Source: a virus. From it: 64,000 bases of DNA. Shown here piece by piece: positions 7,443 to 63,144 of this stretch. The translations under genes were made by a program, and so were the position numbers. The stretch is taken from positions 7,518-71,517 of IMG/VR virus record IMGVR_UViG_3300029231_000002; one strand, 5' to 3'. Numbering within the stretch: position 1 is the first letter of the stretch; every line of letters starts with the position of its first letter. A model generated the notes under the pieces. That model searched no databases, had not been told where the DNA came from, and saw only the letters and a list, made by a program, of their open reading frames with translations.

Positions 7443-7872
7443 GCTCTTTTAATTCTCTTTTAATAATTTCTATATCTTTGCCATACACATTAGTAACAAC
7501 TGTTGCTTGAGGTAAGCCACCATGCATAACATAATATATATCCGCTAAATAGTTATTTGGTGGTTTAATTGACGCTAAGTAAAACGCAGCCTGGGCATAG
7601 CATACCTGCATATACTTACTATTCCAACTAGGCATATAAAGAATATCACCTTTAAATATACGGTTATCTTTTGTATCCAAATAACCAGTACATTGCCCTA
7701 CAGTTTCAATATCTACTTCTTTTGCAACCATTTCTGAATAATCATCACCTATCCAGTTTGAGTATTCAACAATAAAGGCTTCCTCTTCCTGGATTACCAA
7801 GTATCCATATACCCACCTTCTATTATGAATATCCTGTCCTCTATATAGGAAGTTATTTAAGTTGATATTCAT
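7408..7872 (-). CDS. hypothetical protein
   Basis: 154-aa ORF. Confidence 0.5.
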   Translation of the reverse strand: MNINLNNFLYRGQDIHNRRWVYGYLVIQEEEAFIVEYSNWIGDDYSEMVAKEVDIETVGQCTGYLDTKDNRIFKGDILYMPSWNSKYMQVCYAQAAFYLASIKPPNNYLADIYYVMHGGLPQATVVTNVYGKDIEIIKRELKEHEKGIDKNENN

Positions 7873-9462: not shown

Positions 9463-9766
9463 AGTTCCAGCAAAATTTTATTTCATCCCGTGTGACCGCT
9501 CCTCCACAACTTGTTTCTACTAATGGTTTATGACATACACTGCATTCTCCATACTCAGGATACCTGTTGCCCCGGAAATATTGTCGTACCGCTGTTGTAC
9601 GGTTTTCTTCAGTAGGTAATCTATCCAATGCGTTAGCCGCAGAAAGGTACCCTGATTTCAAACCTTCAAAATAGCGCTCCCATTCCCCTACACCTTTTAT
9701 AGTATTAGCTATACCCTGTAGGTACTCTATGGCAGCTTCTTTACTTACCAATTGCATAGTAATCAC
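9425..9766 (-). CDS. small zinc-ribbon protein
   Basis: CSVCHK...CWNCGAKFE. Confidence 0.5.
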   Translation of the reverse strand: MITMQLVSKEAAIEYLQGIANTIKGVGEWERYFEGLKSGYLSAANALDRLPTEENRTTAVRQYFRGNRYPEYGECSVCHKPLVETSCGGAVTRDEIKFCWNCGAKFERSICHA

Positions 9767-9948
9767 TTCTCTTTCTTTTTCTGGTCTTCAATGAGTATAC
9801 GATCCGAGTAACTAATAGAACACGCTGGGTTATACTTGGTTGGCGGACTGGATGCAGTAACCCAAAAACATTCCGCACATGTCGGTGAAAAATAATAATT
9901 ATCTTTAAAATGGATACAATGATAACACCAACTTGTATACTTTATCAT
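9763..9948 (-). CDS. small Cys-rich protein
   Basis: Likely starts at ATG (MIKYTSW), which has RBS GGTGGGAG. The track start is a GTG 4 codons upstream. Confidence 0.4.
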   Translation of the reverse strand: MIKYTSWCYHCIHFKDNYYFSPTCAECFWVTASSPPTKYNPACSISYSDRILIEDQKKKEK

Positions 9949-20744: not shown

Positions 20745-20757
20745 TTTTCTACAATAT
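20745..20757 (-). promoter_or_regulatory. conserved extended -10 motif (TGGTATAAGTATAT), copy 3
   Basis: About 70 nt upstream of the 20013..20678 start. Confidence 0.4.
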
Positions 20758-20776
20758 ACTTATACCAATTTTATTA

Positions 20777-26294: not shown

Positions 26295-26306
26295 ATTACT
26301 TATACC
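26295..26306 (-). promoter_or_regulatory. conserved motif copy 4 (AGGTATAAGTAAT), upstream of 25685..26233
   Basis: Motif identity. The TG of the extended -10 is replaced by AG in this copy. Confidence 0.35.
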
Positions 26307-26308
26307 TC

Positions 26309-30874: not shown

Positions 30875-32533
30875 TTATATAATATAATTTAAATGACTGG
30901 ACCATTCTGTGCCATATTTCATATCCCATTTTGTTATGCCCTCAATGTACTCAGATAAAAACGACCAGTTACCCAGCCATTCTGGTTTATCATTGGGCAA
31001 CATATACTGTTTCTGAATCCCCTCTTTGTACCAGGGATCATTAGCTAAGGGATTAAATGTGTCATCACTCCATAAGAATGGAATACTATTTACTTTCGGC
31101 ATTTTTTTATGTATTACTCGTACCTGATCTTCTCTTACTAATGAAATGGAAGTCATCTGGTAGCCAGCGTCTGGGTTATAGTATTCAGACATTGTATTAT
31201 CATTACTTAAATTTACAACATGACCATATCTGCAGGTCAAGTTTGGACCTCTGTTTCTGAATGCATCAAATGTAAACGAAGGAATCATAGGGAAAACAAG
31301 GTTGTACAAAGGTTTCCTGTGTGTAAAACTATTATACAATTCGTGTATTAACCAATTTAAAATAGCGACAAAATCTCCAGGCGACGCATACTCCTGTTGT
31401 ACCATACTCTTATCTTTATATAGAGGCTTTAGTACACGATAATACAGGTTTGCATAGATACCCTCAGCAAAACTACATAAAGAGTTTAAAACATTGAGAT
31501 CTTCATTTAACATTTTCCGTAAATCGTGAGACCACATTGGACCTGGGATAATCGGATTATCAAATAGATAAGGGACATCCTTGTTACCACGATGATTCTT
31601 CGCATATACAACATTTTGTCCTATTTTAATAGAATTCGCTAAATCTAACCATTTGTAGTATAAACATTCCTCCAGTACTTTTACATTGTCAGGACAACGT
31701 GAGTCATTGAGTTCTTTAAGAATATTAGTAACATATAAACGAGATAATAAAAGCATTCCATATAAACCTTTAATTTTTCTCATTAAATTCTCTCTAGGAT
31801 AGGGAACTGCATCTGTGAAAACATTGTGCGAAATCACATAAAATATTTCAGTGTAATGATTGTTTAAAATCCATGATCCAGAATCAACCATATAAGATGT
31901 TGATTCCATCGTCCTTTCATCCATTCCTAAAATAGTATTTATTACATCTAAAAGGTTAGTATTGCATATAAGCAGATATCCAGGAGCATAGGGTATACTA
32001 TATTTTCTAGATTTTAATTCCTCTATGATATTAGTTGACCAATCATTATGAGTATCATAGGGTGTAATACTTAACAGAGTTTCCTTAAAATCGATATCCT
32101 TAAAATTAGAAATTGGTAAATCTGCTTCCCTAACCACATACATTATATTACTTTTAAGAATCATTGGTGTCGCTAGAATATAAAATAAATAATACATGTA
32201 AGATAGTTCATCTGGAAAATAACAGGGAATAGATAATCGACTCCCCCAAGAAAAATTCATTTTATTCTCATTGCGTTTAAAAAGTTTTTCCAGTACATCC
32301 CTATATCGGGGTCTACCATTTCTGATATATATAAAATCAGAACCCTTACCAAAATATAAACGTATAAACGTGGAAGCAAAACTGTTATTATTATGCCTAT
32401 AATCCCACTGTTGATTTAATAACCGTAATATTTTTTCGCTCTCATTCATAAATACATCTCCTTTTCTGTTAAAATATAGGCAGTTATACAAATGTCTACT
32501 ACCATTATACTTATACCAGCCACTGAAATTCAT
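30875..32533 (-). CDS. hypothetical large protein, first gene leftward of the origin-like region
   Basis: 552-aa ORF. Confidence 0.55.
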   Translation of the reverse strand: MNFSGWYKYNGSRHLYNCLYFNRKGDVFMNESEKILRLLNQQWDYRHNNNSFASTFIRLYFGKGSDFIYIRNGRPRYRDVLEKLFKRNENKMNFSWGSRLSIPCYFPDELSYMYYLFYILATPMILKSNIMYVVREADLPISNFKDIDFKETLLSITPYDTHNDWSTNIIEELKSRKYSIPYAPGYLLICNTNLLDVINTILGMDERTMESTSYMVDSGSWILNNHYTEIFYVISHNVFTDAVPYPRENLMRKIKGLYGMLLLSRLYVTNILKELNDSRCPDNVKVLEECLYYKWLDLANSIKIGQNVVYAKNHRGNKDVPYLFDNPIIPGPMWSHDLRKMLNEDLNVLNSLCSFAEGIYANLYYRVLKPLYKDKSMVQQEYASPGDFVAILNWLIHELYNSFTHRKPLYNLVFPMIPSFTFDAFRNRGPNLTCRYGHVVNLSNDNTMSEYYNPDAGYQMTSISLVREDQVRVIHKKMPKVNSIPFLWSDDTFNPLANDPWYKEGIQKQYMLPNDKPEWLGNWSFLSEYIEGITKWDMKYGTEWSSHLNYII

Positions 32534-32561
32534 TTTTTCCCGACGCCATCGACATAAACAT

Positions 32562-33103
32562 AAAGTGTAGACACTTTTATGTCGATAAACTAGCAGAATT
32601 AGAATGTCTGTCTACACTGTCTACAAATCATCTTTAAAAAGTGTAGACACTTTTTTGCTTATAATATAATATAAATTATATGATTGTCTACATGTCTACA
32701 CTTTTTTTAAGGTAGAGACACATGACGCGAGATTTTTTACATGTAAATAGTGTATACTATATATAAATAGTGTATACTAAATGAAAAATAAAAAATGAAG
32801 ATATATATAAGGGGGTCTACCCTGAAAAAAGTGTAGACATGTAGACAACGTGACATTTCATAGCACCGCGTCCTCAAAAAAGTGTCTACACTTTTTCAAA
32901 AAAATTTGTAGACAGGTGTAGACAACTTTGTGAACTATTTGTGAACTTTCTAGGTTTAATGCTGCCCGGAGGGGTGTAAAAACCTGGGAGCAAAGTGTAA
33001 CCACCGATGGCATCGACAGAATTAGAAACCTCCCGAGTTTTCTGTTTTTAGACACAATTATTTTGCACTGTTTTCTCGGCGAAAAAGTGTCTACACTTTT
33101 TGA
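32562..33103. repeat. iteron cluster: at least 9 copies of AAAGTGTAGACAC in both orientations plus tandem half-sites (TGTCTACA with 9-10 bp spacing), an AT-rich segment and a 16-bp direct repeat AAATAGTGTATACTAA x2
   Basis: Motifs and positions read directly from the sequence. Confidence 0.6.
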
Positions 33104-33302
33104 AAGTATTGTGTACTCAGCGTTTTGCGAAGGGAGGCATTGTAAAACGTCGATAAACGTGGATATTTAAGAGATATGGACATTTTAAGAATCTAGTGGA
33201 CACTTGTGGTTAAAAAGTTAACACTTTTATGTAAACTGAATTAAAGATTGTAATGTTTACAACTTCACAATTATTTTACATTTATATTTATCAACAACAC
33301 AT

Positions 33303-33715
33303 GTGGATAACTGTGTCCTATAGCATAAAGCAATGGGTCTCGTTGTTTTTACTTGCTACTCCGAGTGTAACATTTAATAAAAGTGTAACATTTGTTACAT
33401 TGTTAACCTGTGGATAACTCATTTTCAAGGTTTACACTTTTTATCATTTTTTATCAAAACAAATGTCCACAGGTTCAAAATATAACAAATATGTCGATGA
33501 CATGCTGTGAATGATGTGTAAACCTGTTTCTATTTTACCCTGTGGATAAGCTGTGGATAAGCTGTGGATAACTTTTAAAAATCTGTGGATAAGTACATTT
33601 GTTTTTCACTGTCTAAAGATTATTCCCAAAAATATCCACAAGTTATCCACATATTTATCCACAGGGAACAGTGAGTCACCATGCGGTCTAAGACCACTTA
33701 TCCACATTATCCACA
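33303..33715. promoter_or_regulatory. cluster of 11 perfect DnaA boxes (TTATCCACA/TGTGGATAA) plus near-matches: candidate DnaA-dependent origin or DnaA-titrating element
   Basis: Boxes at about 33303, 33409, 33541, 33553, 33565, 33584 (TGTGGATAA) and 33643, 33655, 33698, 33707 (TTATCCACA), with a near-match at 33632. Four are in tandem at 12-bp spacing. Confidence 0.6.
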
Positions 33716-33825
33716 GCCCCTACTACTACTGCTTTTAAAAGATTATATATTTTCCTAGTAATAGAAAACCTTACACACGTGCGTAGGTTCCAAAAACAAA
33801 AAACTTTTTGATTTCGCAATTTAGG

Positions 33826-33855
33826 TTGACTTGGTTTAGGTTCGTATGATATACT
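33826..33855 (+). promoter_or_regulatory. sigma-A-type promoter for the rightward tail operon (-35 TTGACT, 18-nt spacer, -10 TATACT)
   Basis: Read directly. 60 nt upstream of the first plus-strand gene. Confidence 0.45.
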
Positions 33856-33914
33856 TTAGGTACAGCTTCTGGAACTCCCCTTAACACCTGGCTGTTTTAT
33901 CCAAAACTTTAAAT

Positions 33915-34151
33915 ATGAAAGGCGGTAAGATCATGACAACCGAACAAATCACAAACATTGTACCAGACATTATCACAGTATATGGGCTCACAAAAGTCCA
34001 CAAAGATCTCGTTGAAAGCATTACTGATGAAGGTACTACGCTTTTGCTGACCATTAAGTTTAACGATGCCTTGATGAAAATCCGTATCCTGAAAGATAAT
34101 CCCAATATTGGTGTACGGGTTGACGACCATACTGACGAGGTGACTCTGTAA
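33915..34151 (+). CDS. hypothetical protein
   Basis: 78 aa. First gene of the rightward block. Confidence 0.5.
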   Translation: MKGGKIMTTEQITNIVPDIITVYGLTKVHKDLVESITDEGTTLLLTIKFNDALMKIRILKDNPNIGVRVDDHTDEVTL

Positions 34152-34978
34152 TGTCAGAAAATATTTTGAACAAATCTAAAGAGGATCCATTTGCTCGGCG
34201 TAAAGGTCCTAAAAAAGAAAGTACTTCACCTGTACAGAATATCAAATGTACTCCTGATGGACTGGGAAAAGTCAGTGAAGTCGATGATACTCTTCGTGAC
34301 GACCTTAGTAAATTAGAAGGCCTGGTTCCCCAGGAAGCTTCTTTGGATGAAGGTTACAATAAGATGCTGGCTATTATGGGAGTAGATCCTAAGAAAGCAA
34401 AAACGGCTCAGGAAAGACGTCAGCAGGCAGCAAGTATCTTAAATACTCCGCCTATAGAAACGGTATCTGATCCGATTGGTACTGCTCTGGATGGTCCACG
34501 TATGACAGATCCACAGACAGTTAAAACTCCTGAACCTGTGAAAGAGGAAACTCCTACTTACACAGATGAAGAACTTCTTCCGTACATTGATGCTCTGTTT
34601 ACCCTAGGGTACATTACAGACGAGTTTATGATGCGTGGGGCTAAGGTCGTACTGAAAACTACCTTTACCTGGGAAGAGCAGATGGTCCTTACCAAGCTTG
34701 ATGAGTACACGCAAGATCACCGTTTGAACAGTGCTGTTGATTTGATGTACCAAAAGTTCATGTTGGCTGCAGCTATTCAGACTATTGGTGGTGCTAGCTT
34801 CAAACCTATTAGGGAAGGTGACCCGGTACAGCTTGAAAAGCACTTTGATGCTCGCGTAGAAGTACTGAACACTTTGCCTACACCTATCGTACAATTCCTG
34901 TGGACTAAATACACTAACTTTGCTCAGAAGGTAAGTTATGCCACTAAGGAATTTGAACGGCTTATAAAGGTTTTTTAG
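34151..34978 (+). CDS. hypothetical structural-module protein
   Basis: 275-aa ORF. Confidence 0.55.
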   Translation: MSENILNKSKEDPFARRKGPKKESTSPVQNIKCTPDGLGKVSEVDDTLRDDLSKLEGLVPQEASLDEGYNKMLAIMGVDPKKAKTAQERRQQAASILNTPPIETVSDPIGTALDGPRMTDPQTVKTPEPVKEETPTYTDEELLPYIDALFTLGYITDEFMMRGAKVVLKTTFTWEEQMVLTKLDEYTQDHRLNSAVDLMYQKFMLAAAIQTIGGASFKPIREGDPVQLEKHFDARVEVLNTLPTPIVQFLWTKYTNFAQKVSYATKEFERLIKVF

Positions 34979-50430: not shown

Positions 50431-50484
50431 ATCAACGACCTCCTTATTAAAATTTTGATACTATTACCTAGTATCTATACAATA

Positions 50485-50497
50485 TACTTATACCAAT
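50485..50497 (-). promoter_or_regulatory. conserved extended -10 motif copy 5 (TGGTATAAGTATAT), in the divergent region with the sigma factor gene
   Basis: About 55 nt upstream of the 49105..50430 start. Confidence 0.4.
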
Positions 50498-50543: not shown

Positions 50544-51308
50544 ATGGTTAGACCTAAGTTAGTCGGGTTCCAAGAGGGTAAAGTTGGCCTTAAGGCATCT
50601 AATCAATATTCTGATTCCGATTTGGAACTTTGGCGTAAATATAAACAAGGTAATATTCAAGCTAAATGGGATTTATTGAAAAAATTCCATGGTGTCATTG
50701 TAAGCAATGCCAGAAAGCTTAGCAATGTACGGCCGTACTCTGTTGTAGAAGCAGAGCTTAAAGAACTTACGTTGAAAGCCTTTGATACTTATAATCCTGC
50801 AATGGGAGCCAAGTTATCAACGCATGTAATCAATACTTACAAAAAAGTAAGCCGTGAAAATATCAGTAATCAACATGCCATCCGTATTCCGGAAAATGTA
50901 CACTTTAAGTTTCGACCTATCACTGAGGCTACGGAATACCTGTCGGAGGCTCTTAATAGAGAGCCAACTCACCAGGAGATAGCAGAGTTTACTGGGTGGT
51001 CAGTGCCGAAAGTTATTGACGCTACTACCAGGCTTCGTCGTGAACTGGTAGAGAGTAAACAGACGTTTGATCCAGGGATACATGAAACTGATCCTACTGA
51101 ACAAGCGTTATACTATGCTTACCATGTGCTTGATAATCCTGGTAAATATATACTTGAGCATACAACTGGTTATGGCGGCAAAGTAGAATTGCCTGACTCC
51201 AAAATCAGGACTTACTTAAAACTTACACCACATATGTATAATAAAAAGAAAAACGAAGTTATCGGAGTTGTACGAGAAGCTCTTAATACAGCGTCCGAAG
51301 GCTTCTAA
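50544..51308 (+). CDS. sigma-70-family RNA polymerase sigma factor
   Basis: KLSTHVINTYKKVSRENISNQHAIRIPENVHFKF...EALNREPTHQEIAEF aligns with SigA region 2.4-3 (KFSTYATWWIRQAI...IRIPVHMVE...LGREPTPEEIAE). Confidence 0.7.
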   Translation: MVRPKLVGFQEGKVGLKASNQYSDSDLELWRKYKQGNIQAKWDLLKKFHGVIVSNARKLSNVRPYSVVEAELKELTLKAFDTYNPAMGAKLSTHVINTYKKVSRENISNQHAIRIPENVHFKFRPITEATEYLSEALNREPTHQEIAEFTGWSVPKVIDATTRLRRELVESKQTFDPGIHETDPTEQALYYAYHVLDNPGKYILEHTTGYGGKVELPDSKIRTYLKLTPHMYNKKKNEVIGVVREALNTASEGF

Positions 51309-54723: not shown

Positions 54724-56547
54724 ATGCAACGTTATAACTCATGGCTTCAGACCTTAACACCAGACTTTTGGACTGAAAAGTTTAAGCCGAAAGATATTTT
54801 ACGAGTAACATCACATGCTGCATCTATTTTATCCTTACCTACCGATATATCTCTTTTAGCTCGGTATGATATAAATGAGATAAATGAGCATACTGTTGGT
54901 ATTACAAAAGTATGGCAAGAGTTTGAGTTTGGTGAGCCTACGTACCTTGAGGATGAGGATTATCCTTATGTGTACACAATTGATGAGAACTGGCTATTTT
55001 TAGATGCGTTTTACGATGCTTATGTAGACCCTGAAATCAATCTTCAAAATGAAGTAGACTTTAAATTAACTAAAGGTAAACTAGCATTTGTAAAAGAGGT
55101 ACCTAAAAAAAAGCTATTATTATCAAAGGGTCGCTATGCTGGACTGCGTATCTATAACGAGATCGGCAATCTCCTGGATTACAAGCGCCTGGACTCAACT
55201 ACATATAGAGACTCTATTGCTCCTATATTAGCAGGATTTTACTTGGGGCCTTCACCTAGAAATTTGCTTGCAATGCTTAACTTAGTCGTTGGCTTACCAG
55301 TTGCTAAGTATGGTGATGAAACCGTTATTAGTATTGCAAACCAAGTAGTAGAAACTGATAGATATTCCTATCCAATGGGTAATGCTAAAATCAGTGTAAA
55401 AGAGGGGGATGTTCTTTATAGATTTCAGCCTCTGTCAAGCACTGTTGAACTTATTACCCATAAAACACATCCTTATTGGTGGGAAACTCGACCAGTAGAT
55501 CTGTTTGCAAAGTATCTCATTGATGCTCCTATGACAGAAGAAATTAGAGATTATATCATGTCTAATTTCCTGTATGATGTGGTAGCTTATATCCGGTTAA
55601 ATCTCCAATGGCAAGATCTTCAAGTATTCCAGGACAATCAGGATATTCTCCAGTTATTCTATGATGCTTTGCCTACCAGGACCGATATATTTTTAACTCA
55701 GCAATACGTAGCTGAGTCTTATGATGATAACAATATAATGAGTCCAGACATTGATAGTCTAGGTGTACGACTGAATTTATCTGCAGTCTATGGTCTTAAG
55801 AATATACCTGGAGATATGTTTATTTACTCTAAGGATGTAGGTCGTCCGATATTTACGGATGATCTTTCAGATCCATTAGCTCTTACTTTAAATAATTATT
55901 ATTGGCATATCTTCGATAAAGAAGATGACGATAATTTTAATGAGTTCTGGAAAAGCAAGCCTAATCAACCGTCATATGTGGAACTTAACTACAGTAAAGT
56001 TTACTTTAGAGAAACAGATACTCCATTTGCTGAGCATAAAGAATTTCATCTTAGCCATATGACATTCCCTGCGGATGTAACTGACATGGGAATAAAACTT
56101 GATTTGAAGGGCGATACTTCTGGTGGTATTTACTCTGAGATCACCCAGGAACTAATAGATAGCACGCCCAGTTATAATTTTATACAGGGCGAAACTGTAT
56201 GTGGTATCCTGGAAATGGATAAGTGGGAAATGGATAATGTTGTTATGGCAAAGGATGGTCTGGTTGTATTTGATGGGGATAAGGGCAGCGTTGTTTCTCA
56301 GAGTTTCCCAATTGGCGGCATTCCTAAAAATATTTTTGCAAGAACAGAATATGATGCCCCAGAAGGAACTCTGGTTGATATAAAATATTCGCAGGATAAA
56401 ACAAACTGGCAACCAGTACCAGAAATACTGCGAGATATGACTGGGGTTATTTATTTTAAAATAACGATGTATGCTCTGGATCGTAAGAGTCCAACTTTTA
56501 GACGTCTGTATGTAAATTTACAGTATGGTGAGGAGGAAACAGTATGA
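54724..56547 (+). CDS. baseplate or tail fibre protein (unassigned)
   Basis: 607-aa ORF. Confidence 0.5.
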   Translation: MQRYNSWLQTLTPDFWTEKFKPKDILRVTSHAASILSLPTDISLLARYDINEINEHTVGITKVWQEFEFGEPTYLEDEDYPYVYTIDENWLFLDAFYDAYVDPEINLQNEVDFKLTKGKLAFVKEVPKKKLLLSKGRYAGLRIYNEIGNLLDYKRLDSTTYRDSIAPILAGFYLGPSPRNLLAMLNLVVGLPVAKYGDETVISIANQVVETDRYSYPMGNAKISVKEGDVLYRFQPLSSTVELITHKTHPYWWETRPVDLFAKYLIDAPMTEEIRDYIMSNFLYDVVAYIRLNLQWQDLQVFQDNQDILQLFYDALPTRTDIFLTQQYVAESYDDNNIMSPDIDSLGVRLNLSAVYGLKNIPGDMFIYSKDVGRPIFTDDLSDPLALTLNNYYWHIFDKEDDDNFNEFWKSKPNQPSYVELNYSKVYFRETDTPFAEHKEFHLSHMTFPADVTDMGIKLDLKGDTSGGIYSEITQELIDSTPSYNFIQGETVCGILEMDKWEMDNVVMAKDGLVVFDGDKGSVVSQSFPIGGIPKNIFARTEYDAPEGTLVDIKYSQDKTNWQPVPEILRDMTGVIYFKITMYALDRKSPTFRRLYVNLQYGEEETV

Positions 56548-57068
56548 ATAATATAGCAATAAATGATATTGCTAATAAAGATGCTTTAGGTATCTGTTCA
56601 GGATCGAAACTTATCGGTAGAGTAGGTTTTAAGTTGAAAGATGCAGAGGGTAATGTAGTTCAGGAAGGTAAAGTACCTAATAATATCGTATTGGGTATTA
56701 GGTACCCAATTATAAAACTATTAGGCGGCTGGGGGACTGATTCAGCAGATCTTCCGTTTGTTCGCCAATTAGCATTGGGAACCGGTGATACTGCAGTGAC
56801 TATCGCAGATGAACAACTTGACAGTGAATTATCAGGTTCTCGTAAATTAACCGCTACTGTTCCTACAATTGCGGATGATGGCTTAAGCCTTACATTTTCG
56901 TTCCTGTATGACATGGTAGACGATGCAGTAGATAATCAGGATATTAAAGAGATGGGCTTATTTACTACTGATGGTACAATGATAGCTCGTACTACAGTTG
57001 GGTTATGGCGTAAAACTCCTGGGTTATATTTTGAAGTCTACTGGACTATTGGCTATCAAAAACAATAA
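56544..57068 (+). CDS. tail fibre or baseplate-associated protein (unassigned)
   Basis: 174 aa. Last gene of the rightward block. Confidence 0.5.
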   Translation: MNNIAINDIANKDALGICSGSKLIGRVGFKLKDAEGNVVQEGKVPNNIVLGIRYPIIKLLGGWGTDSADLPFVRQLALGTGDTAVTIADEQLDSELSGSRKLTATVPTIADDGLSLTFSFLYDMVDDAVDNQDIKEMGLFTTDGTMIARTTVGLWRKTPGLYFEVYWTIGYQKQ

Positions 57069-57080
57069 CTAAAAAAAAGA

Positions 57081-57241
57081 AAACCCCGAAAAGTCTTAAC
57101 TACCTATAACACGCCCGATCATGCATGGCTGCCGGATCCGAAGTTCCTGGTTGGTTTTTAAGCTGTAAGCTTAAAAATAGGAAGACGACAATGAACTCAT
57201 TGTCAAACTCTGTTATAGGTAGTTAGGGCGTTTCGGGGTTT
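57081..57241. terminator. 160-bp quasi-palindrome: 31-bp inverted arms (AAACCCCGAAAAGTCTTAACTACCTATAACA / TGTTATAGGTAGTTAGGGCGTTTCGGGGTTT) enclosing about 95 nt with internal small hairpins. Acts at least as a bidirectional terminator (T8 run on minus side)
   Basis: Arms compared base by base (about 28 of 31). T-run TTTTCTTTTTTTT follows on the minus strand. Confidence 0.5.
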
Positions 57242-57247
57242 AATTAC

Positions 57248-57398
57248 TTTCATCTTATCTGACCTCCAGAAATTGGAGAAACGTTGATGGGAGTCGAACG
57301 TTAGGAAGCATGTGTTATATGTATAATATTAGTTATACATTAGGACATAACATAAGGAGATGCTAACGAAATATTTCTGGAGGTCAAATAAGATGAAA
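57248..57398. repeat. second 150-bp quasi-palindrome: 26-bp near-perfect inverted arms (TTTCATCTTATCTGACCTCCAGAAAT / ATTTCTGGAGGTCAAATAAGATGAAA) around a 96-nt imperfectly self-complementary core
   Basis: Read directly. The internal ATGTATA...TATACAT hairpin sits at the centre. Confidence 0.5.
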
Positions 57399-57834
57399 AT
57401 AAAGTATCTTGATATTATTAAGACTACCTAAGTAGTCCCCATGCGATTATACGGTCCCGTCGTTTTGGCGGATGAGGAGGTATAACGCGATGTCACGGGT
57501 TGTTTTCATAGGTTTATGACTGCCGTCTAAACCATAAGAAAAAACCATTAAGAACTCTTAATGAATCTCGACTACCTAGGCAGTCTTAATAATATCAAGA
57601 TAATAAAATACAGTATCCCATGTTGGCGCTATAATTAGTAATATCTTTCCTTACCGTTATCTATCCTATAATTTCTTATAGGAAGCGAGCATGTGACCAA
57701 CGGTACACAACCGCAATTGGGCCAGATGTTATTACTATTATTTATTTTTATTCCTAGAACTCTCGGAATGAAAATTATAACACATGAGATACTGTATTTA
57801 TAAATAGAAATAATATCTAATATTATTCCTACAG

Positions 57835-57847
57835 ATTACTTATACCA
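57835..57847 (-). promoter_or_regulatory. conserved extended -10 motif copy 6 (TGGTATAAGTAAT), 8 nt beyond the stop of 57856..58905, pointing into the non-coding region
   Basis: Motif identity. No minus-strand gene lies downstream. Confidence 0.4.
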
Positions 57848-57855
57848 AATTTTTT

Positions 57856-58905
57856 TTAATTAAGCGCATACGAATAATCAACAATTTTAGTAAGATCATC
57901 CTTATATTTTTCTAGGGATTCACTGTCGATCTTATTGAAATCAAAGATATCTATGAGCAAATATACCAGTTTATGTCTGAACGTTGTGTACCAACGAAGG
58001 TGCATGGGCTTTTCAAAATCTACTGCTGTAATTGAATAACTGTTTGCTAACATCATAAGTCCATAAACCTTAATCGGGGTCAACTCAGCCTTTAAATTTA
58101 TAAGTTTGAAGTATTCAGTACACGATTCGGATACCGATTTACAAAAAGCAATAGTTTCCATACCATCATTTGCGTATTTAAGTATGCACCCATGGTTTTC
58201 ATAGGATTCTTTGCTGGCATAGATACGACTGTCATCAGTTAGATACTCTTGACACTTTGGATACCAAACAGGATTATCTTTCCGATATTCTAACTCGGAA
58301 AGGACAGCATCATTGACTTCATCAATATCAGGGTCTAAATACTCTGGTGTTTTAGTTACCATTTCTTTAAAATAAGAACTCTGCGCTTTCCATAACGGAT
58401 CTGTTAAAAATTCGTCTTCAGTGTCAAACAAATCATATTCATAGGTATCATTTAAATAACTAACAGAATCACTATAATCTACGAGGCATAGATCTTTGAT
58501 AAGTTTAGAATTAACTTTATCTGACATAATATCTTGCAAAAGATCTGTGAAGTGACACCCCAATTCATAGATTATTTCATCTGCATTTCGAGTATCTTGA
58601 ATTGATGAATATATTAAATTCATGAATTCTGATAGATAATAGGTAACTTCAGAGGGAGATAACGGAGGTCCCATTGGTTGTTCCAACGCTTTACATCTAA
58701 TTTCCCCTTTATTATGATGGCAAGTAAAAGGCGCTAAGTCCAATAATGTATTCTCGTCTTCTTTTTGCGCCCTTTGTTTTGCCTTTTCTTTTTCTTCTTT
58801 TTCTCGTTCAACTTTTTCTTGTGCTAATTTTAACATTTCTGCGTTGACTATAATAGGTCCACTCTCCAACGCCTTTGTATCTATTTTGCTAACAGGTTCA
58901 GCCAT
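57856..58905 (-). CDS. hypothetical protein, third gene of the RT module
   Basis: 349 aa with a charged coiled-coil-like N-terminus. The start abuts the RT stop. Confidence 0.55.
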   Translation of the reverse strand: MAEPVSKIDTKALESGPIIVNAEMLKLAQEKVEREKEEKEKAKQRAQKEDENTLLDLAPFTCHHNKGEIRCKALEQPMGPPLSPSEVTYYLSEFMNLIYSSIQDTRNADEIIYELGCHFTDLLQDIMSDKVNSKLIKDLCLVDYSDSVSYLNDTYEYDLFDTEDEFLTDPLWKAQSSYFKEMVTKTPEYLDPDIDEVNDAVLSELEYRKDNPVWYPKCQEYLTDDSRIYASKESYENHGCILKYANDGMETIAFCKSVSESCTEYFKLINLKAELTPIKVYGLMMLANSYSITAVDFEKPMHLRWYTTFRHKLVYLLIDIFDFNKIDSESLEKYKDDLTKIVDYSYALN

Positions 58906-60363
58906 TTAGAACCCCTCCCTTTTAAATATGTCGATCATATCCTCTACAGTTTTTTGGCGATGCTTATCCATGATAGTTTTTAACTTTAGGGTTTTATCTG
59001 GATCTACTATACTGAGAAATGCCAGCTTGCCATTAAACACCCGTTTACTCAAGGGTTTCACCATTAAATTTCTAAATGATGATTTAAAGAATTTATTGTG
59101 AGCCGCATACTTTTTAACTAACGCGATTCTAGCAGGATGTATATTATACATTACTTCTCGTATACCAAGCTGTTTTCCAATCAGCATCGCTTCAACTCGC
59201 AGGTCATTATATTTACTCCGTGGATACTTTACTTCCGAGTTAGATATATGTAATCCCAATACAGTTTTCACCGATTGTACATATTTATACATTGGTTTAA
59301 CTATAAATTCTAAATTTGGATATTTCGTATGAACCAGGTCAGTGATACGTGTTAATGTTTCTGGCAATTCATCCAATGGAATTTTGGTATCCTTAGAGAA
59401 CGTGAACTCAATGACTTTGGCAGATATTGTTCCACGTAAGTCTGGCATCTGTAAATAGTTTGTTATAATCCCGATAATTTTAGCAGACTGAGTAGATGGC
59501 AGATATGTAACTTTTGTTTTTATACGGAAGCCAGTTACAATAGGATAAGCTTTATCACGCATAATTCCAACTTTCTTATAATTCATCCGAAATGGATGTA
59601 CTACCTCACTAAGTTCGCTGATAAAGTCCTGACATTCTGCATCACTTTTGTTACCTGAAAAGCATAAATCATCTGCATATCGAGTATATGTAAACCCAAA
59701 CTTTTCTGCTAGTTCCGCTACTCTGCAATCAAAATCATAATTAAGGATTATAGTAAGAATTGGAGAAGTAGGAGCTCCCTGCGGTAGTACCCCATCTAAA
59801 CAAACAAGTTTAACGATTCTACTCAGAACATCCAGGGGTAAATTTGTATTAAAATTTTTTGCAATTAAATGCTCAAGCCCTTTTTGTACATATAAGGATG
59901 TGTGAGCTGGGAAAAAGTCTTTTAAATCTACATGTACAAGTACCCCGTCATTAGCAACTGTTTTAGCTGCATCTACAATGTTTTTACCTTGCATAAATGC
60001 GTAATTACACGGATGTTTAGGAAACTGATTAAAGAATTCCATTAGCTTTAATTGTAGTTCCTTTAAAGCTTCGGTAGGGGCATTGATTTCTCTAAGTTTA
60101 ATACCAAAAGAATAGGGAACGATTTTCTTAGTATTCTTATCGATATAAAACCTGGAATAACAGGCTTTTGCAGTAACGTCTGTTATAGACGTTAGTATTT
60201 CAGGAGTTACTCCCATATAACTTGAAAAAGAATTATAATCAATAAAGGGCAATTCGGATAATGTAAGTACTCGATTGCCACAGATACTTTCTAATTGACT
60301 ATGCCGCCCAGTTAAAGTATTATAATACTCACGTACAAGCTTTGGAAACCTGTTAATATCCAT
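58906..60363 (-). CDS. reverse transcriptase, retron-like (group II/retron/Abi clade) with about 150-aa C-terminal extension
   Basis: RT motifs VHVDLKDFFP (A), LPQGAPTSPILTIILN (B'), FTYTRYADDLCFSG (C), and PIVTGFRI (VTG triplet characteristic of retron RTs). QGxxxSP argues against a DGR-type RT. Confidence 0.85.
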   Translation of the reverse strand: MDINRFPKLVREYYNTLTGRHSQLESICGNRVLTLSELPFIDYNSFSSYMGVTPEILTSITDVTAKACYSRFYIDKNTKKIVPYSFGIKLREINAPTEALKELQLKLMEFFNQFPKHPCNYAFMQGKNIVDAAKTVANDGVLVHVDLKDFFPAHTSLYVQKGLEHLIAKNFNTNLPLDVLSRIVKLVCLDGVLPQGAPTSPILTIILNYDFDCRVAELAEKFGFTYTRYADDLCFSGNKSDAECQDFISELSEVVHPFRMNYKKVGIMRDKAYPIVTGFRIKTKVTYLPSTQSAKIIGIITNYLQMPDLRGTISAKVIEFTFSKDTKIPLDELPETLTRITDLVHTKYPNLEFIVKPMYKYVQSVKTVLGLHISNSEVKYPRSKYNDLRVEAMLIGKQLGIREVMYNIHPARIALVKKYAAHNKFFKSSFRNLMVKPLSKRVFNGKLAFLSIVDPDKTLKLKTIMDKHRQKTVEDMIDIFKREGF

Positions 60364-61190
60364 TATACATTCTCCTTTTCTACAGGTTCATCTTTGAGAT
60401 ATGTGTTTGTATACCATTCCTCAAAGTCTTTATTACTTTTAAACTTTTGTAAAATGGGAAATTCGTTGCTGTCGATATCCAACCCTGAAATAATAGTATT
60501 TGCGTATAACTGTTGGATATCTTTATTGATTTCCTCTTTTGATATCGGATTTAGGGTAAAGAAGCATTTATAATCGATATCATAATTAATACATAAAGTA
60601 TCTTCTTTATGAGCTTGATGTTTACATAGATTACACTTATTCTTTATTTCTATACCATTAAGGATCAGCTTATGTTCTACTGGAAGATGCATATAGTATT
60701 TTAAGGACTCAATATCTTCTGTATCCTTTAATAGAGTAACATATGCATTTCCGAAAACTAGGTTTGAAACAAATACATTAGCATCAGTTATTAGACTCAT
60801 AACAGTACTAATAGGCATAGGGGAGGTATCAAATAACGGAACTGTACAAAATACGGGTTCAGTATTTTCGTCTGTAAAAACCTGAAGGTCATTAAAAATT
60901 AACCGTTTAGAAGAGGAAGTATAAACTTCTAAAACACCATAGGTACATTCTTTTAATTTAGTACAAAAGTCCCTGAATTCATCTGCACTAAATTCCCATA
61001 TAAGATAATTCTTAAAAATGGGGGTCAACGGTTTAAAAGAAAAATAAGCGCATCTTGCAATTACACCTGGTACGATTTGCAGCAAGACACCGATGTTGAG
61101 AGCATTAGGTCCCCAGTAAACAACAGTGTTGCTTTTGTCTACTATAGTTCCTTGTCTCTCTTGAGTTTCCATAGAACTCATGGCAGTCAC
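60363..61190 (-). CDS. hypothetical protein, first gene of the RT module
   Basis: 275 aa. The stop overlaps the RT start (ATGA-type coupling). The likely start is the internal ATG (MSSMETQ), which has RBS AAAGGAA. Confidence 0.55.
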   Translation of the reverse strand: MTAMSSMETQERQGTIVDKSNTVVYWGPNALNIGVLLQIVPGVIARCAYFSFKPLTPIFKNYLIWEFSADEFRDFCTKLKECTYGVLEVYTSSSKRLIFNDLQVFTDENTEPVFCTVPLFDTSPMPISTVMSLITDANVFVSNLVFGNAYVTLLKDTEDIESLKYYMHLPVEHKLILNGIEIKNKCNLCKHQAHKEDTLCINYDIDYKCFFTLNPISKEEINKDIQQLYANTIISGLDIDSNEFPILQKFKSNKDFEEWYTNTYLKDEPVEKENV

Positions 61191-61200
61191 ATTCCTTTCT

Positions 61201-61249
61201 TTTAATAAAAAATAAAAGACCCTGAAATCAATTGCTTGACTCAGGGTCT
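61201..61249 (-). terminator. rho-independent terminator (AAGACCCTGA-15 nt-TCAGGGTCTT then TTTTATTTTTTATT) immediately upstream of the RT-module RBS
   Basis: 10-bp perfect stem plus a T-run on the minus strand. Confidence 0.55.
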
Positions 61250-61497
61250 TCGGAGGATGGCCGCTCTGGTTTAGATTTGTGCACTAAAGTGAGATAGTGA
61301 ATAACACTTTGTAAGGGGATGATTATTTCTGCACAGGTTAGGACCGAGCGGCGTAGTCCTAAGAGAAGAAACCACCCCAATGAGGGCTGCATCTATAACA
61401 GTACTCTCCTAAAAGAAAACTGCGTTAGGGTACATCTCCCAGATGCGTGCCGTCAGCGCAGACTTACGTTTTCTTTAGAGGTTTGATATAGATATCT
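61201..61497 (-). ncRNA. candidate discrete leader/ncRNA unit (about 290 nt) between the promoter motif and the terminator, upstream of the RT module; possible retron msr-msd-like template or regulatory leader
   Basis: Bounded by the extended -10 at 61504-61516 and the terminator. Contains hairpins AGGAC-N11-GTCCT and CATCT-GGG-AGATG, and a CTCTAAAGAAAAC / GTTTTCTTTTAGAG pairing. No ORF. Confidence 0.35.
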
Positions 61498-61503
61498 TCT
61501 CCA

Positions 61504-61516
61504 TATTACTTATACC
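61504..61516 (-). promoter_or_regulatory. conserved extended -10 motif copy 7 (TGGTATAAGTAAT), 20 nt downstream of the terminase stop
   Basis: Motif identity. Confidence 0.4.
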
Positions 61517-61536
61517 ATTTTGATCTCTATAACATT

Positions 61537-63144
61537 TTACTCATATTCTTCAGGTATTTCACCGTTAGGTGGAGTGAAATCATCTAACTGATGTTTGAAT
61601 GCCCTTGGATTTTTAGCAAAGTATCTAGCACCTAAACGTAAATATACTAGCGTATGTGCAAAGTCATCAGGAACATTGATATCCCTGATTATCTGGAATG
61701 CACGAATCCTATCATTATATTCACAAGATAAGGTTAATAGATCCTCTGCGAAAGGTTTCATAACCTTATATGCAGGGAAAATCATTCTTTGGCTTTTAAT
61801 ATCTAAAACAACGCCTGCCATTGCACGAGTACGATCTGTAACCCAGGATCTGGATTTATCGTTAAATTCCATACCTACAGTTACACGCGCTTTATATTCT
61901 ATTTCGTATACTTTTACATTCGGGAAATGTTTACGAAGCACAGAGTTCGCTAAACTACCGCCACCACGGTCACATACTATTAAAACTGGAGTGGCAGAAG
62001 CTATTAGCTTAACGATTTGATCCATCTGGGATAATGGGTCCTGATCTACTGGGAATTTCTGGCTAAAAAATACACGCAGTTTATCCTGCGGATCCAGGCC
62101 CCCAATAGTTACTACGGTATGCGTGTTTCCACCAAGTACACCCCAGTCTACTGTAGCAACTACAGTATATATTCCCCATTCACCTTTTCTATTAGTAGTA
62201 AATTCTGTTGTTTCAGGATCACAGCACGCAACGACATCTGATTCAACCAGAAGTTTTGCACCGTTATCATAGGAATAACCAAGACATTCATTGAAAAACT
62301 TTGCCTCACTATATAATGGGTTATTTAATTTTTCGATAAGACGGGACCAGGGAATACCTGTTTGAGGAACACCTGCGATCATTGCCTGAGAAATGTGATA
62401 CCCAACAAAATCCCTGTCAGGATATTTGCCTACATATTCACCAGTTGCTACGTCCAAGGGTTTACCACAGTATTTACATATAAGACCATCTTCACCTAGA
62501 TTATCTACTACGATTGGTACATTCCACTTTGTACAACCCTTGCATTTCATTGCCCAATAGTGTTGGGTAGTTTGTTCCCAAAGCTTTTGAATACAATTAT
62601 CAAATGTTTTAGGAGTACCGCAAAAGACCATACGTTTCGGAGTTTTACGTGCTGTACATTCTTCTATTACAGGGATGTTATCCAAAATGATATCCTGTAC
62701 CTCGTCAAGATACACAGAATTTGCGGATATACCACGGATACCATCGGCTGTATGATAGCAGCTACGTAAATACATCATAGATCCGTTTAAAAACTCTTTA
62801 GCCTGGGTTTGCATAGTACACGAAGAATTAACATAATAATTCTTTATAATCGGAGAATTATTTATCATTGGGTTAAGTTTATCATTATTAAATTGTGATA
62901 CCTGATTATCTCGAGGAGCTACGTATAATGATCTCCAGAATGGTTTGCTGGCAAGTTCTGTAATACTGGTTGCACCAATAGTAGTTGATTTTGCTACCTG
63001 GCGACCAGTCATAAGAAGCAATTTTTCTGAGTCTGTATTCATTATAGTAACCATGTATGGTAACCCATCAAGACTAAAAGGTTTACCATCCAAGTATAAT
63101 ATCTTTTGGGAGAAATCAGAGGGGCTTGTTTCCAGTGTATACAT
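61537..63144 (-). CDS. terminase large subunit
   Basis: Walker A-like LMTGRQVAKST, Walker B VYLDEV, and a C-terminal nuclease-like region. 535 aa. RBS GAAGGAG. Confidence 0.8.
   Translation of the reverse strand: MYTLETSPSDFSQKILYLDGKPFSLDGLPYMVTIMNTDSEKLLLMTGRQVAKSTTIGATSITELASKPFWRSLYVAPRDNQVSQFNNDKLNPMINNSPIIKNYYVNSSCTMQTQAKEFLNGSMMYLRSCYHTADGIRGISANSVYLDEVQDIILDNIPVIEECTARKTPKRMVFCGTPKTFDNCIQKLWEQTTQHYWAMKCKGCTKWNVPIVVDNLGEDGLICKYCGKPLDVATGEYVGKYPDRDFVGYHISQAMIAGVPQTGIPWSRLIEKLNNPLYSEAKFFNECLGYSYDNGAKLLVESDVVACCDPETTEFTTNRKGEWGIYTVVATVDWGVLGGNTHTVVTIGGLDPQDKLRVFFSQKFPVDQDPLSQMDQIVKLIASATPVLIVCDRGGGSLANSVLRKHFPNVKVYEIEYKARVTVGMEFNDKSRSWVTDRTRAMAGVVLDIKSQRMIFPAYKVMKPFAEDLLTLSCEYNDRIRAFQIIRDINVPDDFAHTLVYLRLGARYFAKNPRAFKHQLDDFTPPNGEIPEEYE

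Follow-up and report, generated by a model that had tools for sequence, protein, structure and literature searches.

A 64-kb stretch of phage DNA (IMG/VR record IMGVR_UViG_3300029231_000002, positions 7,518 to 71,517 of that record; hereafter the window, W) encodes on its minus strand a retron-type reverse transcriptase (RT) with two coupled partner genes and, directly downstream of this operon, an array of four structured RNA modules, three of which contain a hypervariable block. We consider it somewhat probable that the locus is a phage-encoded multi-template retron-like system, in which the blocks are copied into single-stranded DNA (ssDNA) with a role related to genetic conflict. The RNA array makes the locus a system rather than an orphan RT. 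Retrons are regarded as abortive-infection systems of bacteria, each with one template RNA; here, a group of large gut phages has a retron-type RT as a fixed yet rapidly evolving component, and this RT is paired with an array. We have not found this arrangement, a retron-type RT operon followed by a hypervariable array of stem-closed RNAs, described, and the full-text literature yielded no description of phage retron-type non-coding RNA (ncRNA) arrays or of hypervariable retron templates. The suggestion of the initial annotation, made from the sequence of the window, that the RT could belong to an undescribed system agrees with this literature.

Retron-type reverse transcriptase and its operon

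The operon includes three open reading frames (ORFs) on the minus strand, encoding an upstream partner of 275 aa (60363–61190, from a GTG start), the RT of 485 aa (58906–60363), and a third protein of 349 aa (57856–58905). The stop codon of the upstream partner and the start codon of the RT share one base (TAATG), which makes the translational coupling direct, and the ATG of the third ORF directly abuts the RT stop (TAAATG). The initial annotation had described three coupled ORFs between terminase and tail genes, and this layout is confirmed by the coordinates, by both junctions, and by the matches of the large terminase subunit (TerL) and of a baseplate gene. The ORFs within the span then proposed (57856–61516) are real; the RNA array at 57069–57855 lies just outside it and had been missed. 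The window was compared with related phage loci and strains, which are designated by L-numbers. The 1-nt overlap between the partner and the RT is present in the window and in the four relatives checked for it (L004, L006, L008 and L010), and an adjacent ORF is found upstream of the RT in every lineage examined.

The RT contains the motifs LPQGAPTSP, RYADD and PIVTGFRI and matches the Pfam family RVT_1 at 1.9e-10, above the gathering score, as the initial annotation had expected. Its 25 best PADLOC matches are all retron RT models, ranging from 4e-48 (RT_III-A) to 1e-31, and no model of a defence-associated RT (DRT) is among these 25 families. Since many retron types score near 1e-40, no specific retron type is indicated. 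The top 14 matches of a PDB sequence search are likewise all retron RTs, the closest being Ec67, Ec78, Ec86, Kva2, Ec83 and Eco8. An AlphaFold (AF2) model of the RT was built from a 24-sequence family alignment (pLDDT 84.7), and the top 18 matches of this model in a Foldseek search of the PDB are retron RTs, with Ec86 at E 7e-16 and a TM score of 0.75 on the target. DRT9 and DRT2 occupy ranks 19–20, and RTs of group II introns and of diversity-generating retroelements (DGRs) are found lower, the DGR RT 8ub7 at rank 44 with E 1e-6. The assignment to retron-like RTs made at the outset is supported by all of these searches, and the argument that the QGxxxSP motif speaks against a DGR enzyme was borne out. 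Among the NCBIfam models, retron_St85_RT reaches 156 bits (1e-45), below its cut-off of 235, the Ec67 family 118 bits (cut-off 450), and TIR-RT 99 bits (cut-off 600); lower scores are obtained for Drt2 (33 bits, cut-off 390), Drt4 (20 bits, cut-off 450) and the group II maturase model TIGR04416 (25 bits, cut-off 300). The enzyme is a retron-type RT that stands outside the curated retron families.

Solved retron RTs are ~310–320 aa long, and the present enzyme exceeds them by about 165 aa; the greater length noticed initially is thus measured. The excess consists of an alpha/beta insertion at residues ~290–350 (~60–80 aa) and a long helical C-terminus. Retron RTs have an NAxxH motif between RT3 and RT4 and a VTG motif in RT7. 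In the present RT the NAxxH position reads DAAKT. The VTG triplet had been regarded as diagnostic of retron RTs; it is present in the RT of the window, yet it is not conserved in the RT family, where it is replaced by MTG, FTG, LNG, VCG and other variants, and only G278 is nearly invariant. The QGxxSP and YADD motifs are invariant across the family.

A search of 5.8 billion proteins identified ~27 full-length clusters of this RT family with identities of 30–92%; beyond these clusters only generic retron RTs match, over the RT core. We also scanned bacterial and archaeal genomes, one genome per species for 185,579 species, and the best 80 matches contain no family member, all being generic retron RTs aligned over residues ~40–300. 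These data bear on the origin of the locus as a mobile retroelement, either a group II intron or a similar element, or a bacterial retron recently inserted into one phage. Such an origin would account for the RVT_1 domain and for weak matches to group II RTs. It is effectively refuted by the score of 25 bits against the maturase cut-off of 300, by the lack of any Rfam intron RNA, by the presence of the module at one and the same site in every related lineage examined, and by the absence of family members among the 80 best bacterial matches. The alternative that the initial annotation itself had named, an RT grouping with group II maturases, is therefore contradicted by the profile scores and by the Rfam search. 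This search, which covered the region 56500–62000 at E-values up to 1, returned no match for the array either.

Structured RNA array and hypervariable blocks

The 787-nt gap downstream of the third ORF (57069–57855) contains four abutting modules of 160–200 nt, each delimited by an inverted repeat; the arms are 40, 30, 33 and 18 nt long and enclose cores of 99–158 nt. The folding energies of the array are 6–11 standard deviations below those of shuffled sequences (minimum free energy z of -6 to -11), and the fold of the whole gap in the RT sense resolves cleanly into four domains. In the direction of transcription of the RT (minus strand), a small leader hairpin (57804–57832), which is kept in the L008 lineage, is situated between a promoter-like motif and the first module. 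The first module, E4 (57606–57799), has a closing helix of at least 18 bp, a stem-loop termed SL1 with the loop GAGUUC at 57757–57762, and a hypervariable block at 57685–57715. Module E3 (57405–57602) has a 33-bp closing helix, SL1 at 57545–57564 (loop 57552–57557), a second stem-loop, SL2, and a hypervariable block at 57441–57507. Module E2 (57244–57402), closed by a 30-bp helix, contains neither SL1 nor a hypervariable block and is of a different type. The last module, E1 (57072–57250), has a closing helix whose arms measure up to 40 nt, SL1 at 57186–57205 (loop 57193–57198), SL2, and a hypervariable block at 57113–57157; its 3' end in the RT sense is a terminator U-run.

Similar arrays were found in the related loci, with four domains in L004, five in L006 and L105, two to four in L008, one in L010, four in L013, and at least six in L016. 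Counting modules of 100 nt or more, nine representative loci contain 37; the median module is 176 nt long, and the median closing helix measures 23 bp. The arm sequences are wholly different between lineages. Miniature inverted-repeat transposable elements and insertion sequence remnants were rejected as an explanation of the inverted repeats, because the arms differ from module to module and none of them recurs elsewhere in the window.

The predicted structures are supported by an alignment of 15 strain variants of the array of the window. Standard pairs occupy 92.5% of the pair cells, versus ~41% with slid partners, and pairs changed on both sides number 20, versus 4–9 with slid partners; none of 500 shuffles reached the observed value. 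The closing helices are 97–100% paired, and helix 8 of module E3 is 99.6% paired with three compensatory pairs. Conserved G.U pairs, including those of E3 helix 8, would be C.A on the opposite strand, and the folds contain 103 G.U pairs in the sense orientation versus 70 in the antisense one. As judged from this pairing and from the U-run at the end of E1, the RNA sense of the array is the RT strand.

The most characteristic element of the modules is SL1. It was found in 29 of the 37 modules, 24–57 nt from the 5' end, with a stem of 6–9 bp in 24 of them. The loop is A-N-U-U closed by a G-C pair, in the variants GAGUUC (18 modules), GAUUUC (7), GACUUC (3) and GAAUUC (1). In the window it is present in three modules of the four (E1, E3 and E4). 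The 9.4 kb of arrays contain 30 sense copies of the SL1 motif and one antisense copy, the latter owing to the palindromic GAAUUC. In the remaining 179 kb of the family loci there are only three copies, all located in RT-operon leaders (L014, L103 and L104), and in the L008 leader this position is occupied by the variant GAGUCC. Across 153 unrelated retron-RT loci (1.29 Mb) the motif occurs at 0.009 per kb per strand, so that the arrays are enriched ~340-fold. The occurrence of SL1-type hairpins both in the arrays and in the RT-operon leaders ties the motif to the RT operon, and the leader hairpin is, among the sequence comparisons, the strongest indication of a link between the array and the operon.

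We also considered that the array might be unrelated to the RT and consist of phage small RNAs or of a long bidirectional terminator or insulator between convergent operons. The array has a promoter motif of its own, it is located between convergent transcription units, its last module ends in a U-run, and synteny alone could keep the neighbours together, given TerL identities of 63–95%. This explanation appears quite improbable in view of the G(ANUU)C hairpin, which is found in the RT leader of the L008/L014 lineage and nowhere else in the 179 kb of family loci outside the arrays. In L010, the single module directly follows the RT stop and has no promoter of its own. Furthermore, both the module number and the RT turn over quickly, yet they occur together in every complete locus, and a terminator does not need modules of 160–200 nt with conserved hairpins and a hypervariable block.

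In the 15 strains each SL1-bearing module has one scrambled segment, directly 5' of the 3' arm; the arms, SL1 and SL2 are nearly invariant. Between the window and L091, the divergence is 0.35–0.56 in the blocks, 0.15–0.18 at flanking third-codon sites, and 0–0.05 in the scaffolds. Within the strains L091–L098, nucleotide diversity (pi) is 0.03–0.06 in the blocks versus 0.0015–0.004 at third-codon sites, a 10–20-fold difference. A mere lack of constraint on the blocks was rejected for this reason, as such an excess over third-codon diversity is observed among near-identical strains. The G+C content is 52% in the blocks and 32% in the scaffolds. Polymorphic events number 40 in 167 block columns versus 32 in the other 654 columns; 20 of the 40 events inside the blocks are transversions, versus 9 of the 32 outside. 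Small duplications and indels are seen in the alignment of the blocks. An antisense peptide ORF in the E1 and E3 blocks (M-H/S-G-C-R...) was also rejected, since it has no ribosome-binding site and its shared residues derive from the conserved flanks.

The same pattern is visible in a second lineage, formed by L008, L103 and L104 (RTs 86–88% identical at the DNA level), where a scrambled block adjoins each 3' arm. The promoter, arms, SL1 and SL2 are conserved there, SL2 with a compensatory change. Modules without SL1, namely E2 and the third module of the L008 lineage, carry no such block. E2 is highly conserved between strains, and the module that lacks both SL1 and a block is a different kind of RNA, present once per array. 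Other strain pairs are identical or nearly so (L006/L007, L008/L009 and L010/L011 are identical) and are hence uninformative.

Hypervariability confined to discrete blocks is reminiscent of DGRs, and the locus might be a DGR-like self-diversifying element, whose RT would use mutagenic retrohoming to mutate the blocks in its own RNA genes, the product being RNA or ssDNA. The 10–20-fold excess over third-codon diversity, the transversion-rich spectrum, and the small duplications and indels are in line with such an element, and the accessory protein directly upstream of the RT is reminiscent of the Avd-RT layout, although this is a resemblance only. We regard this possibility as unlikely, because the RT falls outside the DGR clade (QGAPTSP motif; rank 44 for the DGR RT in the fold search) and the partner has no Avd match. 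The blocks show no adenine bias, 13 of the 40 events starting from A, which makes up 28% of the block composition. A pair of template and variable repeats (TR/VR), or another target of the array, was not detected in the 64 kb of the window, where no match exceeds 16 nt and the 15–16-mers are at chance level; the remaining ~95 kb of the genome were outside this search. Comparison of the array with 50,697 phage records and 72,556 plasmids (blastn, word size 11) gave matches at chance level only (E ~0.8), and exact 24-mers from two blocks matched only this phage in IMG/VR, as did one of them in JGI metagenomes.

Accessory proteins, proposed mechanism and comparison with known systems

The upstream partner probably starts at the ATG at 61181, giving 272 aa; this start is preferred to the GTG because relatives begin at MSSM. 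Four cysteines are invariant (C186, C189, C200 and C209, in the pattern PCxLC...C...C) and are followed by an acidic tail; this Cys4 arrangement is, by its sequence pattern, zinc-finger-like. The homology of the partner across lineages is weak, consistent and full-length. An exhaustive HMMER search of 1.84 billion cluster representatives found only four relatives, a PDB profile search with an alignment of eight lineages gave nothing significant, and an AF2 model from three sequences was unusable (pLDDT 35).

The third ORF has no recognisable domain and is variable between lineages. Only three close homologues were found. Other lineages have ORFs of 444, 380, 211 or 168 aa at this position, or none, and comparison of the third ORFs between lineages detected no similarity (profile-profile probability of at most 1.2%). 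Neither partner has a match in Pfam, PHROGs, PADLOC (5027 models) or NCBIfam, in the window or in five other lineages, which agrees with the initial description of both as lacking recognisable domains. The co-conservation with the RT implied by that description holds for the upstream partner; the 349-aa ORF is not conserved across lineages.

The module evolves several-fold faster than its core neighbours. Identities between the window and L006, L008 and L013 are 72–75% for TerL, 56–73% for tail proteins, 34–43% for the RT and ~20–25% for the partner, with the third ORF unalignable. For the closer relative L004 the corresponding values are 95%, 92–97%, 83%, 79% and 71%. The phages have otherwise diverged moderately, and the module stands out in them as a fast-evolving hotspot of fixed position. 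Since it evolves so much faster than the core genes and keeps its position, we infer a role in conflict rather than in replication or packaging.

One known form of such a role is that of a classical tripartite toxin-antitoxin retron for superinfection exclusion, where the complex of the RT with multicopy ssDNA (msDNA) would restrain one or both partner toxins; interference of a competing phage with the msDNA would end this restraint and kill the cell. The RT is of the retron type, two tightly coupled accessory proteins are usual in many retron types, the module evolves fast, and retrons are known on prophages and satellites. Nevertheless, such a system seems unlikely here, as neither partner matches any of the PADLOC, Pfam or NCBIfam models and the third ORF is replaced or absent between lineages. 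Cell killing would be of little benefit to an already lytic phage, and a fixed place among morphogenesis genes would be unlike the variable islands that are usual for phage-borne defence. In addition, we know of no defence retron with several templates per RT.

For the multi-template retron-like system that we favour, we propose the following scheme. A phage promoter would drive the leader RNA, followed by the Cys4 partner, the RT, and the fast-evolving third protein. The second promoter copy would drive the polycistronic array, whose four modules would be locked by terminal duplexes of 18–40 bp. These long duplexes would set the limits of the modules and may permit their separation by cleavage; we speculate that they could be RNase III sites. 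The RT would recognise the G(ANUU)C-loop hairpin near the 5' arm, prime at the base of the terminal duplex, as in retrons, and copy the adjacent 3' segment, the hypervariable block, into a short ssDNA. Retron RTs begin copying just 5' of the 3' arm, and the position of the blocks directly 5' of the 3' arm supports the block as the template. The cDNA species would number three in this phage and from one to six or more in its relatives. The variability of the blocks could originate in either of two ways. Error-bearing cDNA may recombine back into replicating phage genomes, or selection may act on a sequence that determines specificity. As an estimate, errors per base are ~2e-8 in phage replication and 1e-4 to 1e-5 for RTs, so that an origin by cDNA recombination is plausible in order of magnitude. 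The role in genetic conflict might be anti-defence or competition between phages. Template use, priming mode, cDNA products and biological role are thus predicted from comparative genomics. The blocks can be viewed as a genomic read-out of where reverse transcription probably acts, which makes the hypothesis testable with existing metagenomes and metatranscriptomes.

Several observations weigh against this scheme. The RT scores below the cut-offs of the curated retron families, and its retron signatures are degenerate, with DAAKT in place of NAxxH and an unconserved VTG. The array is downstream of the RT, while in most retrons one msr-msd precedes the RT gene. Among 29 modules, the first base left unpaired beyond the 5' arm is A (13), G (12), U (3) or C (1), and it is A in all L006 modules, so that a branching G is not invariant, its exact position being uncertain in predicted structures. 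The blocks fold weakly (z of 0 to -3), whereas canonical retrons have long msd hairpins. The figures on hypervariability come from one lineage, the second having been judged by eye. The link between the array and the RT is drawn from synteny and the shared hairpin motif. Finally, no effector-like domain was found in either partner with Pfam, PHROGs, PADLOC or NCBIfam.

Going further, the locus may represent a distinct new class of phage retroelement, in which one retron-derived RT serves an array and the blocks are specificity determinants. We put this forward only as a tentative and rather doubtful extension. The short ssDNAs could then act as guides, decoys or sensors in conflicts between phage and host or between phages, and RT-dependent copying back into the phage genome could keep the blocks diverse. 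Such an element would differ from retrons as well as from DGRs: it would be a natural, programmable source of ssDNA from several templates, and the sequence that it diversifies would be non-coding.

Bacterial retrons (types I–XIII of Mestre, consisting of an RT, an msr-msd and an effector) are the closest known systems. Their RTs are the nearest by hidden Markov model, PDB sequence and fold comparisons; the modules are closed by a long duplex resembling the retron a1/a2 stem and have hairpins on the 5' side and a variable 3' segment; and accessory genes are translationally coupled to the RT. In contrast to bacterial retrons, the phage loci have from one to six or more modules per RT, located downstream of the genes and preceded by their own promoter. 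The branching G is not invariant, and the variable segment is weakly structured, does not form a long hairpin, and is hypervariable between strains. The RT has degenerate NAxxH and VTG motifs, an insertion of ~60–80 aa and a long C-terminal extension, and it is not accompanied by any known effector class. The family occurs in large phages at a fixed locus and is absent from the best bacterial-genome matches.

Phage DGRs share with the present locus a phage-borne RT, a small accessory protein directly upstream of it, the vicinity of tail genes, and sharply localised hypervariability. They differ in the RT clade, in having a TR/VR pair, an adenine-specific spectrum and Avd, and in the location of the variable sequence, which is here in a non-coding RNA gene rather than in a protein-coding target. 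The DRT2, DRT9, DRT3 and DRT10 systems of the UG/Abi group resemble the locus in combining an RT with a dedicated adjacent structured ncRNA, and their functional output is cDNA. Unlike these, the RT described here groups with retrons by sequence and fold, and an array of putative templates takes the place of the single template.

In 2024, Gonzalez-Delgado et al. reportedly engineered "multitrons", tandem retron ncRNAs from which one RT makes several ssDNAs. These are synthetic constructs, of which the present array would be a natural counterpart. The nearest precedent that we found in the literature is an RT of lytic Staphylococcus jumbo phages. The protein gp206 of MarsHill, one of these phages, is an unannotated retron-like RT with a long (1.2 kb) adjacent non-coding region (10.1101/2020.12.14.422802). 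Like the present, apparently virulent phage, MarsHill is large and lytic, and as here neither a recognisable effector nor DGR features are associated with the RT (10.1101/2020.12.14.422802). The two RTs are distant, with 29% identity over the RT core (related Staphylococcus phage records); gp206 carries its extra domain at the N-terminus and has the non-coding region upstream, and no RNA structure, array or hypervariability was reported for it (10.1101/2020.12.14.422802).

If the RT does copy the blocks, this would be the first natural multi-template retron-like system, and it would show phages putting reverse transcription of the retron type to their own use. It would also be a case of localised hypermutation in a non-coding template, so far seen only for the protein targets of DGRs. 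The scaffold, with its long clamp duplex, recognition hairpin and free insert site, is what retron-editing technology tries to engineer, and a natural scaffold that tolerates arbitrary inserts of 30–70 nt in tandem could be directly useful.

Leader RNA, promoter-like motif and phage context

The terminase-to-first-ORF interval is 346 nt long, with a promoter-like motif at its start and, at its end, a hairpin and a U-run before the ribosome-binding site. The motif TGGTATAAGTAAT, an exact 13-mer, is located at 61505–61517 on the minus strand, just past the terminase stop, and its second exact copy is at 57835–57847 on the minus strand, immediately upstream of the RNA array. The core GGTATAAGTA has eight copies in the window, all on the minus strand, which is the gene-sense strand. 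In each related locus except L010 the core GGTATAAGTA occurs exactly twice, before the operon leader and before the array. The copy at the array start is kept in L004, L006, L105, L008, L103, L013 and L016, and a single copy precedes the operon leader in every related locus. L010 has no third ORF, and its single module, located directly after the RT, lacks its own promoter.

The motif TGGTATAAGTA(A/T)(T/A) precedes blocks of minus-strand genes throughout the window, at 10049–10061, 16061–16073, 20755–20767, 26295–26307, 32506–32518, 50483–50495, 57835–57847 and 61505–61517 (all on the minus strand). It probably serves as promoter in a transcription programme specific to the phage. RNA polymerase-like and sigma-like proteins are encoded by these phages themselves. 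In the window, a 254-aa protein encoded at 50544–51308 on the plus strand, just ahead of the baseplate genes, weakly matches an RNA polymerase sigma factor family (PHROG 351, 3e-11). In related phages (L008 1–551 and L010 1–766), a single polypeptide of 1,313–1,371 aa contains both Rpb2-like and Rpb1-like RNA polymerase domains, and this fused two-barrel polymerase is encoded a few kb upstream of terL.

The structured leader RNA (61191–61504, minus strand) is about 300 nt long and contains a terminator-like hairpin at 61216–61250 followed by the U-run. It is almost invariant between the window and L004, with one compensatory change, while adjacent third-codon sites differ by 32–41%. Its core, of the form CUGCG...GGG...CCC...ACCGCAG, is also recognisable in L013 and L006/L105. 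The L008/L014 lineage has one G(ANUU)C hairpin and a U-run in place of this leader. From this conservation, the leader appears to be regulatory and could possibly be bound by the RT.

The large terminase gene is encoded on the minus strand at 61537–63144 (Pfam GpA_ATPase, 8e-15; PHROG 675, 2e-70). It belongs to the genomic context rather than to the RT module, and its position is the same in the relatives checked. On the opposite side of the module there are a baseplate-J-like gene and two further tail-region genes in convergent orientation. The gene order in the relatives is terminase, a short gap or leader, an ORF of 198–275 aa, the RT, a variable third ORF or none, a non-coding gap, and convergent tail genes. 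This order is kept in the window, L004/L005, L006/L007/L105, L008/L009/L103/L104, L010/L011, L013/L017 and L016, with the exception that in L016 the genes beyond the non-coding gap are on the same strand and not convergent. The L014 contig ends early, and the leader, partner and RT are visible there. In L006 (4464–5982) and L105 (917–2463), small genes, including an AAA_33-like kinase and a zinc-ribbon protein, are inserted between terL and the RT operon. The adjacency of terL and the RT is therefore not absolute; both loci nevertheless retain the operon leader and the module order. In L010 (4253–6024; a contig of 146.6 kb from IMG 3300001598), the terminase is called as two ORFs of 136 and 310 aa, ~430 nt apart, and an Endonuclease_7 gene lies just upstream, which suggests an insertion of an intron or homing endonuclease in terL.

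Near-identical contigs of 125–164 kb were found in IMG/VR and in gut metagenome assemblies. The locus has no DNA match among 50,697 deposited phages (megablast), and its TerL is less than 30% identical to that of any deposited phage; by these comparisons the phage is without a cultured relative. The window encodes an anaerobic ribonucleotide reductase, and it contains no tRNA or tmRNA detectable by ARAGORN. No integrase was found among the ORFs scanned. The virulent lifestyle assumed in the initial annotation is supported indirectly, by this lack of an integrase and by the position of the RT family outside the best bacterial matches.

Several further features of the window and of the related loci were noted. 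In L008, an almost perfect 113-nt hairpin flanked by A6/U6 (9647–9759) is an analogue of the SL1-less module E2, and an additional GC-rich structured segment of ~185–205 nt is found at the end of the array (9781–9965, gap positions 533–717). L103 and L104 lack this segment, so a whole-domain indel separates close relatives. A 383-aa ORF of the window (10112–11263, minus strand) aligns only with the C-terminal half of NrdD (profile positions 338–713 of 718); an intron or homing endonuclease, for instance, may interrupt the gene and leave its N-terminal part upstream. Another ORF, of 284 aa (16066–16920, minus strand), matches PHROG 4285 "transposase" (1e-49); it is overlapped by long ORFs on both strands and has an exact copy of the promoter motif at its 3' end. 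Finally, the coding strand, GC skew and AT skew all change sign near 33–34 kb (~32500–34200), where a minus-strand gene block and the plus-strand structural block diverge; this junction is possibly an origin or a boundary between transcription modules.

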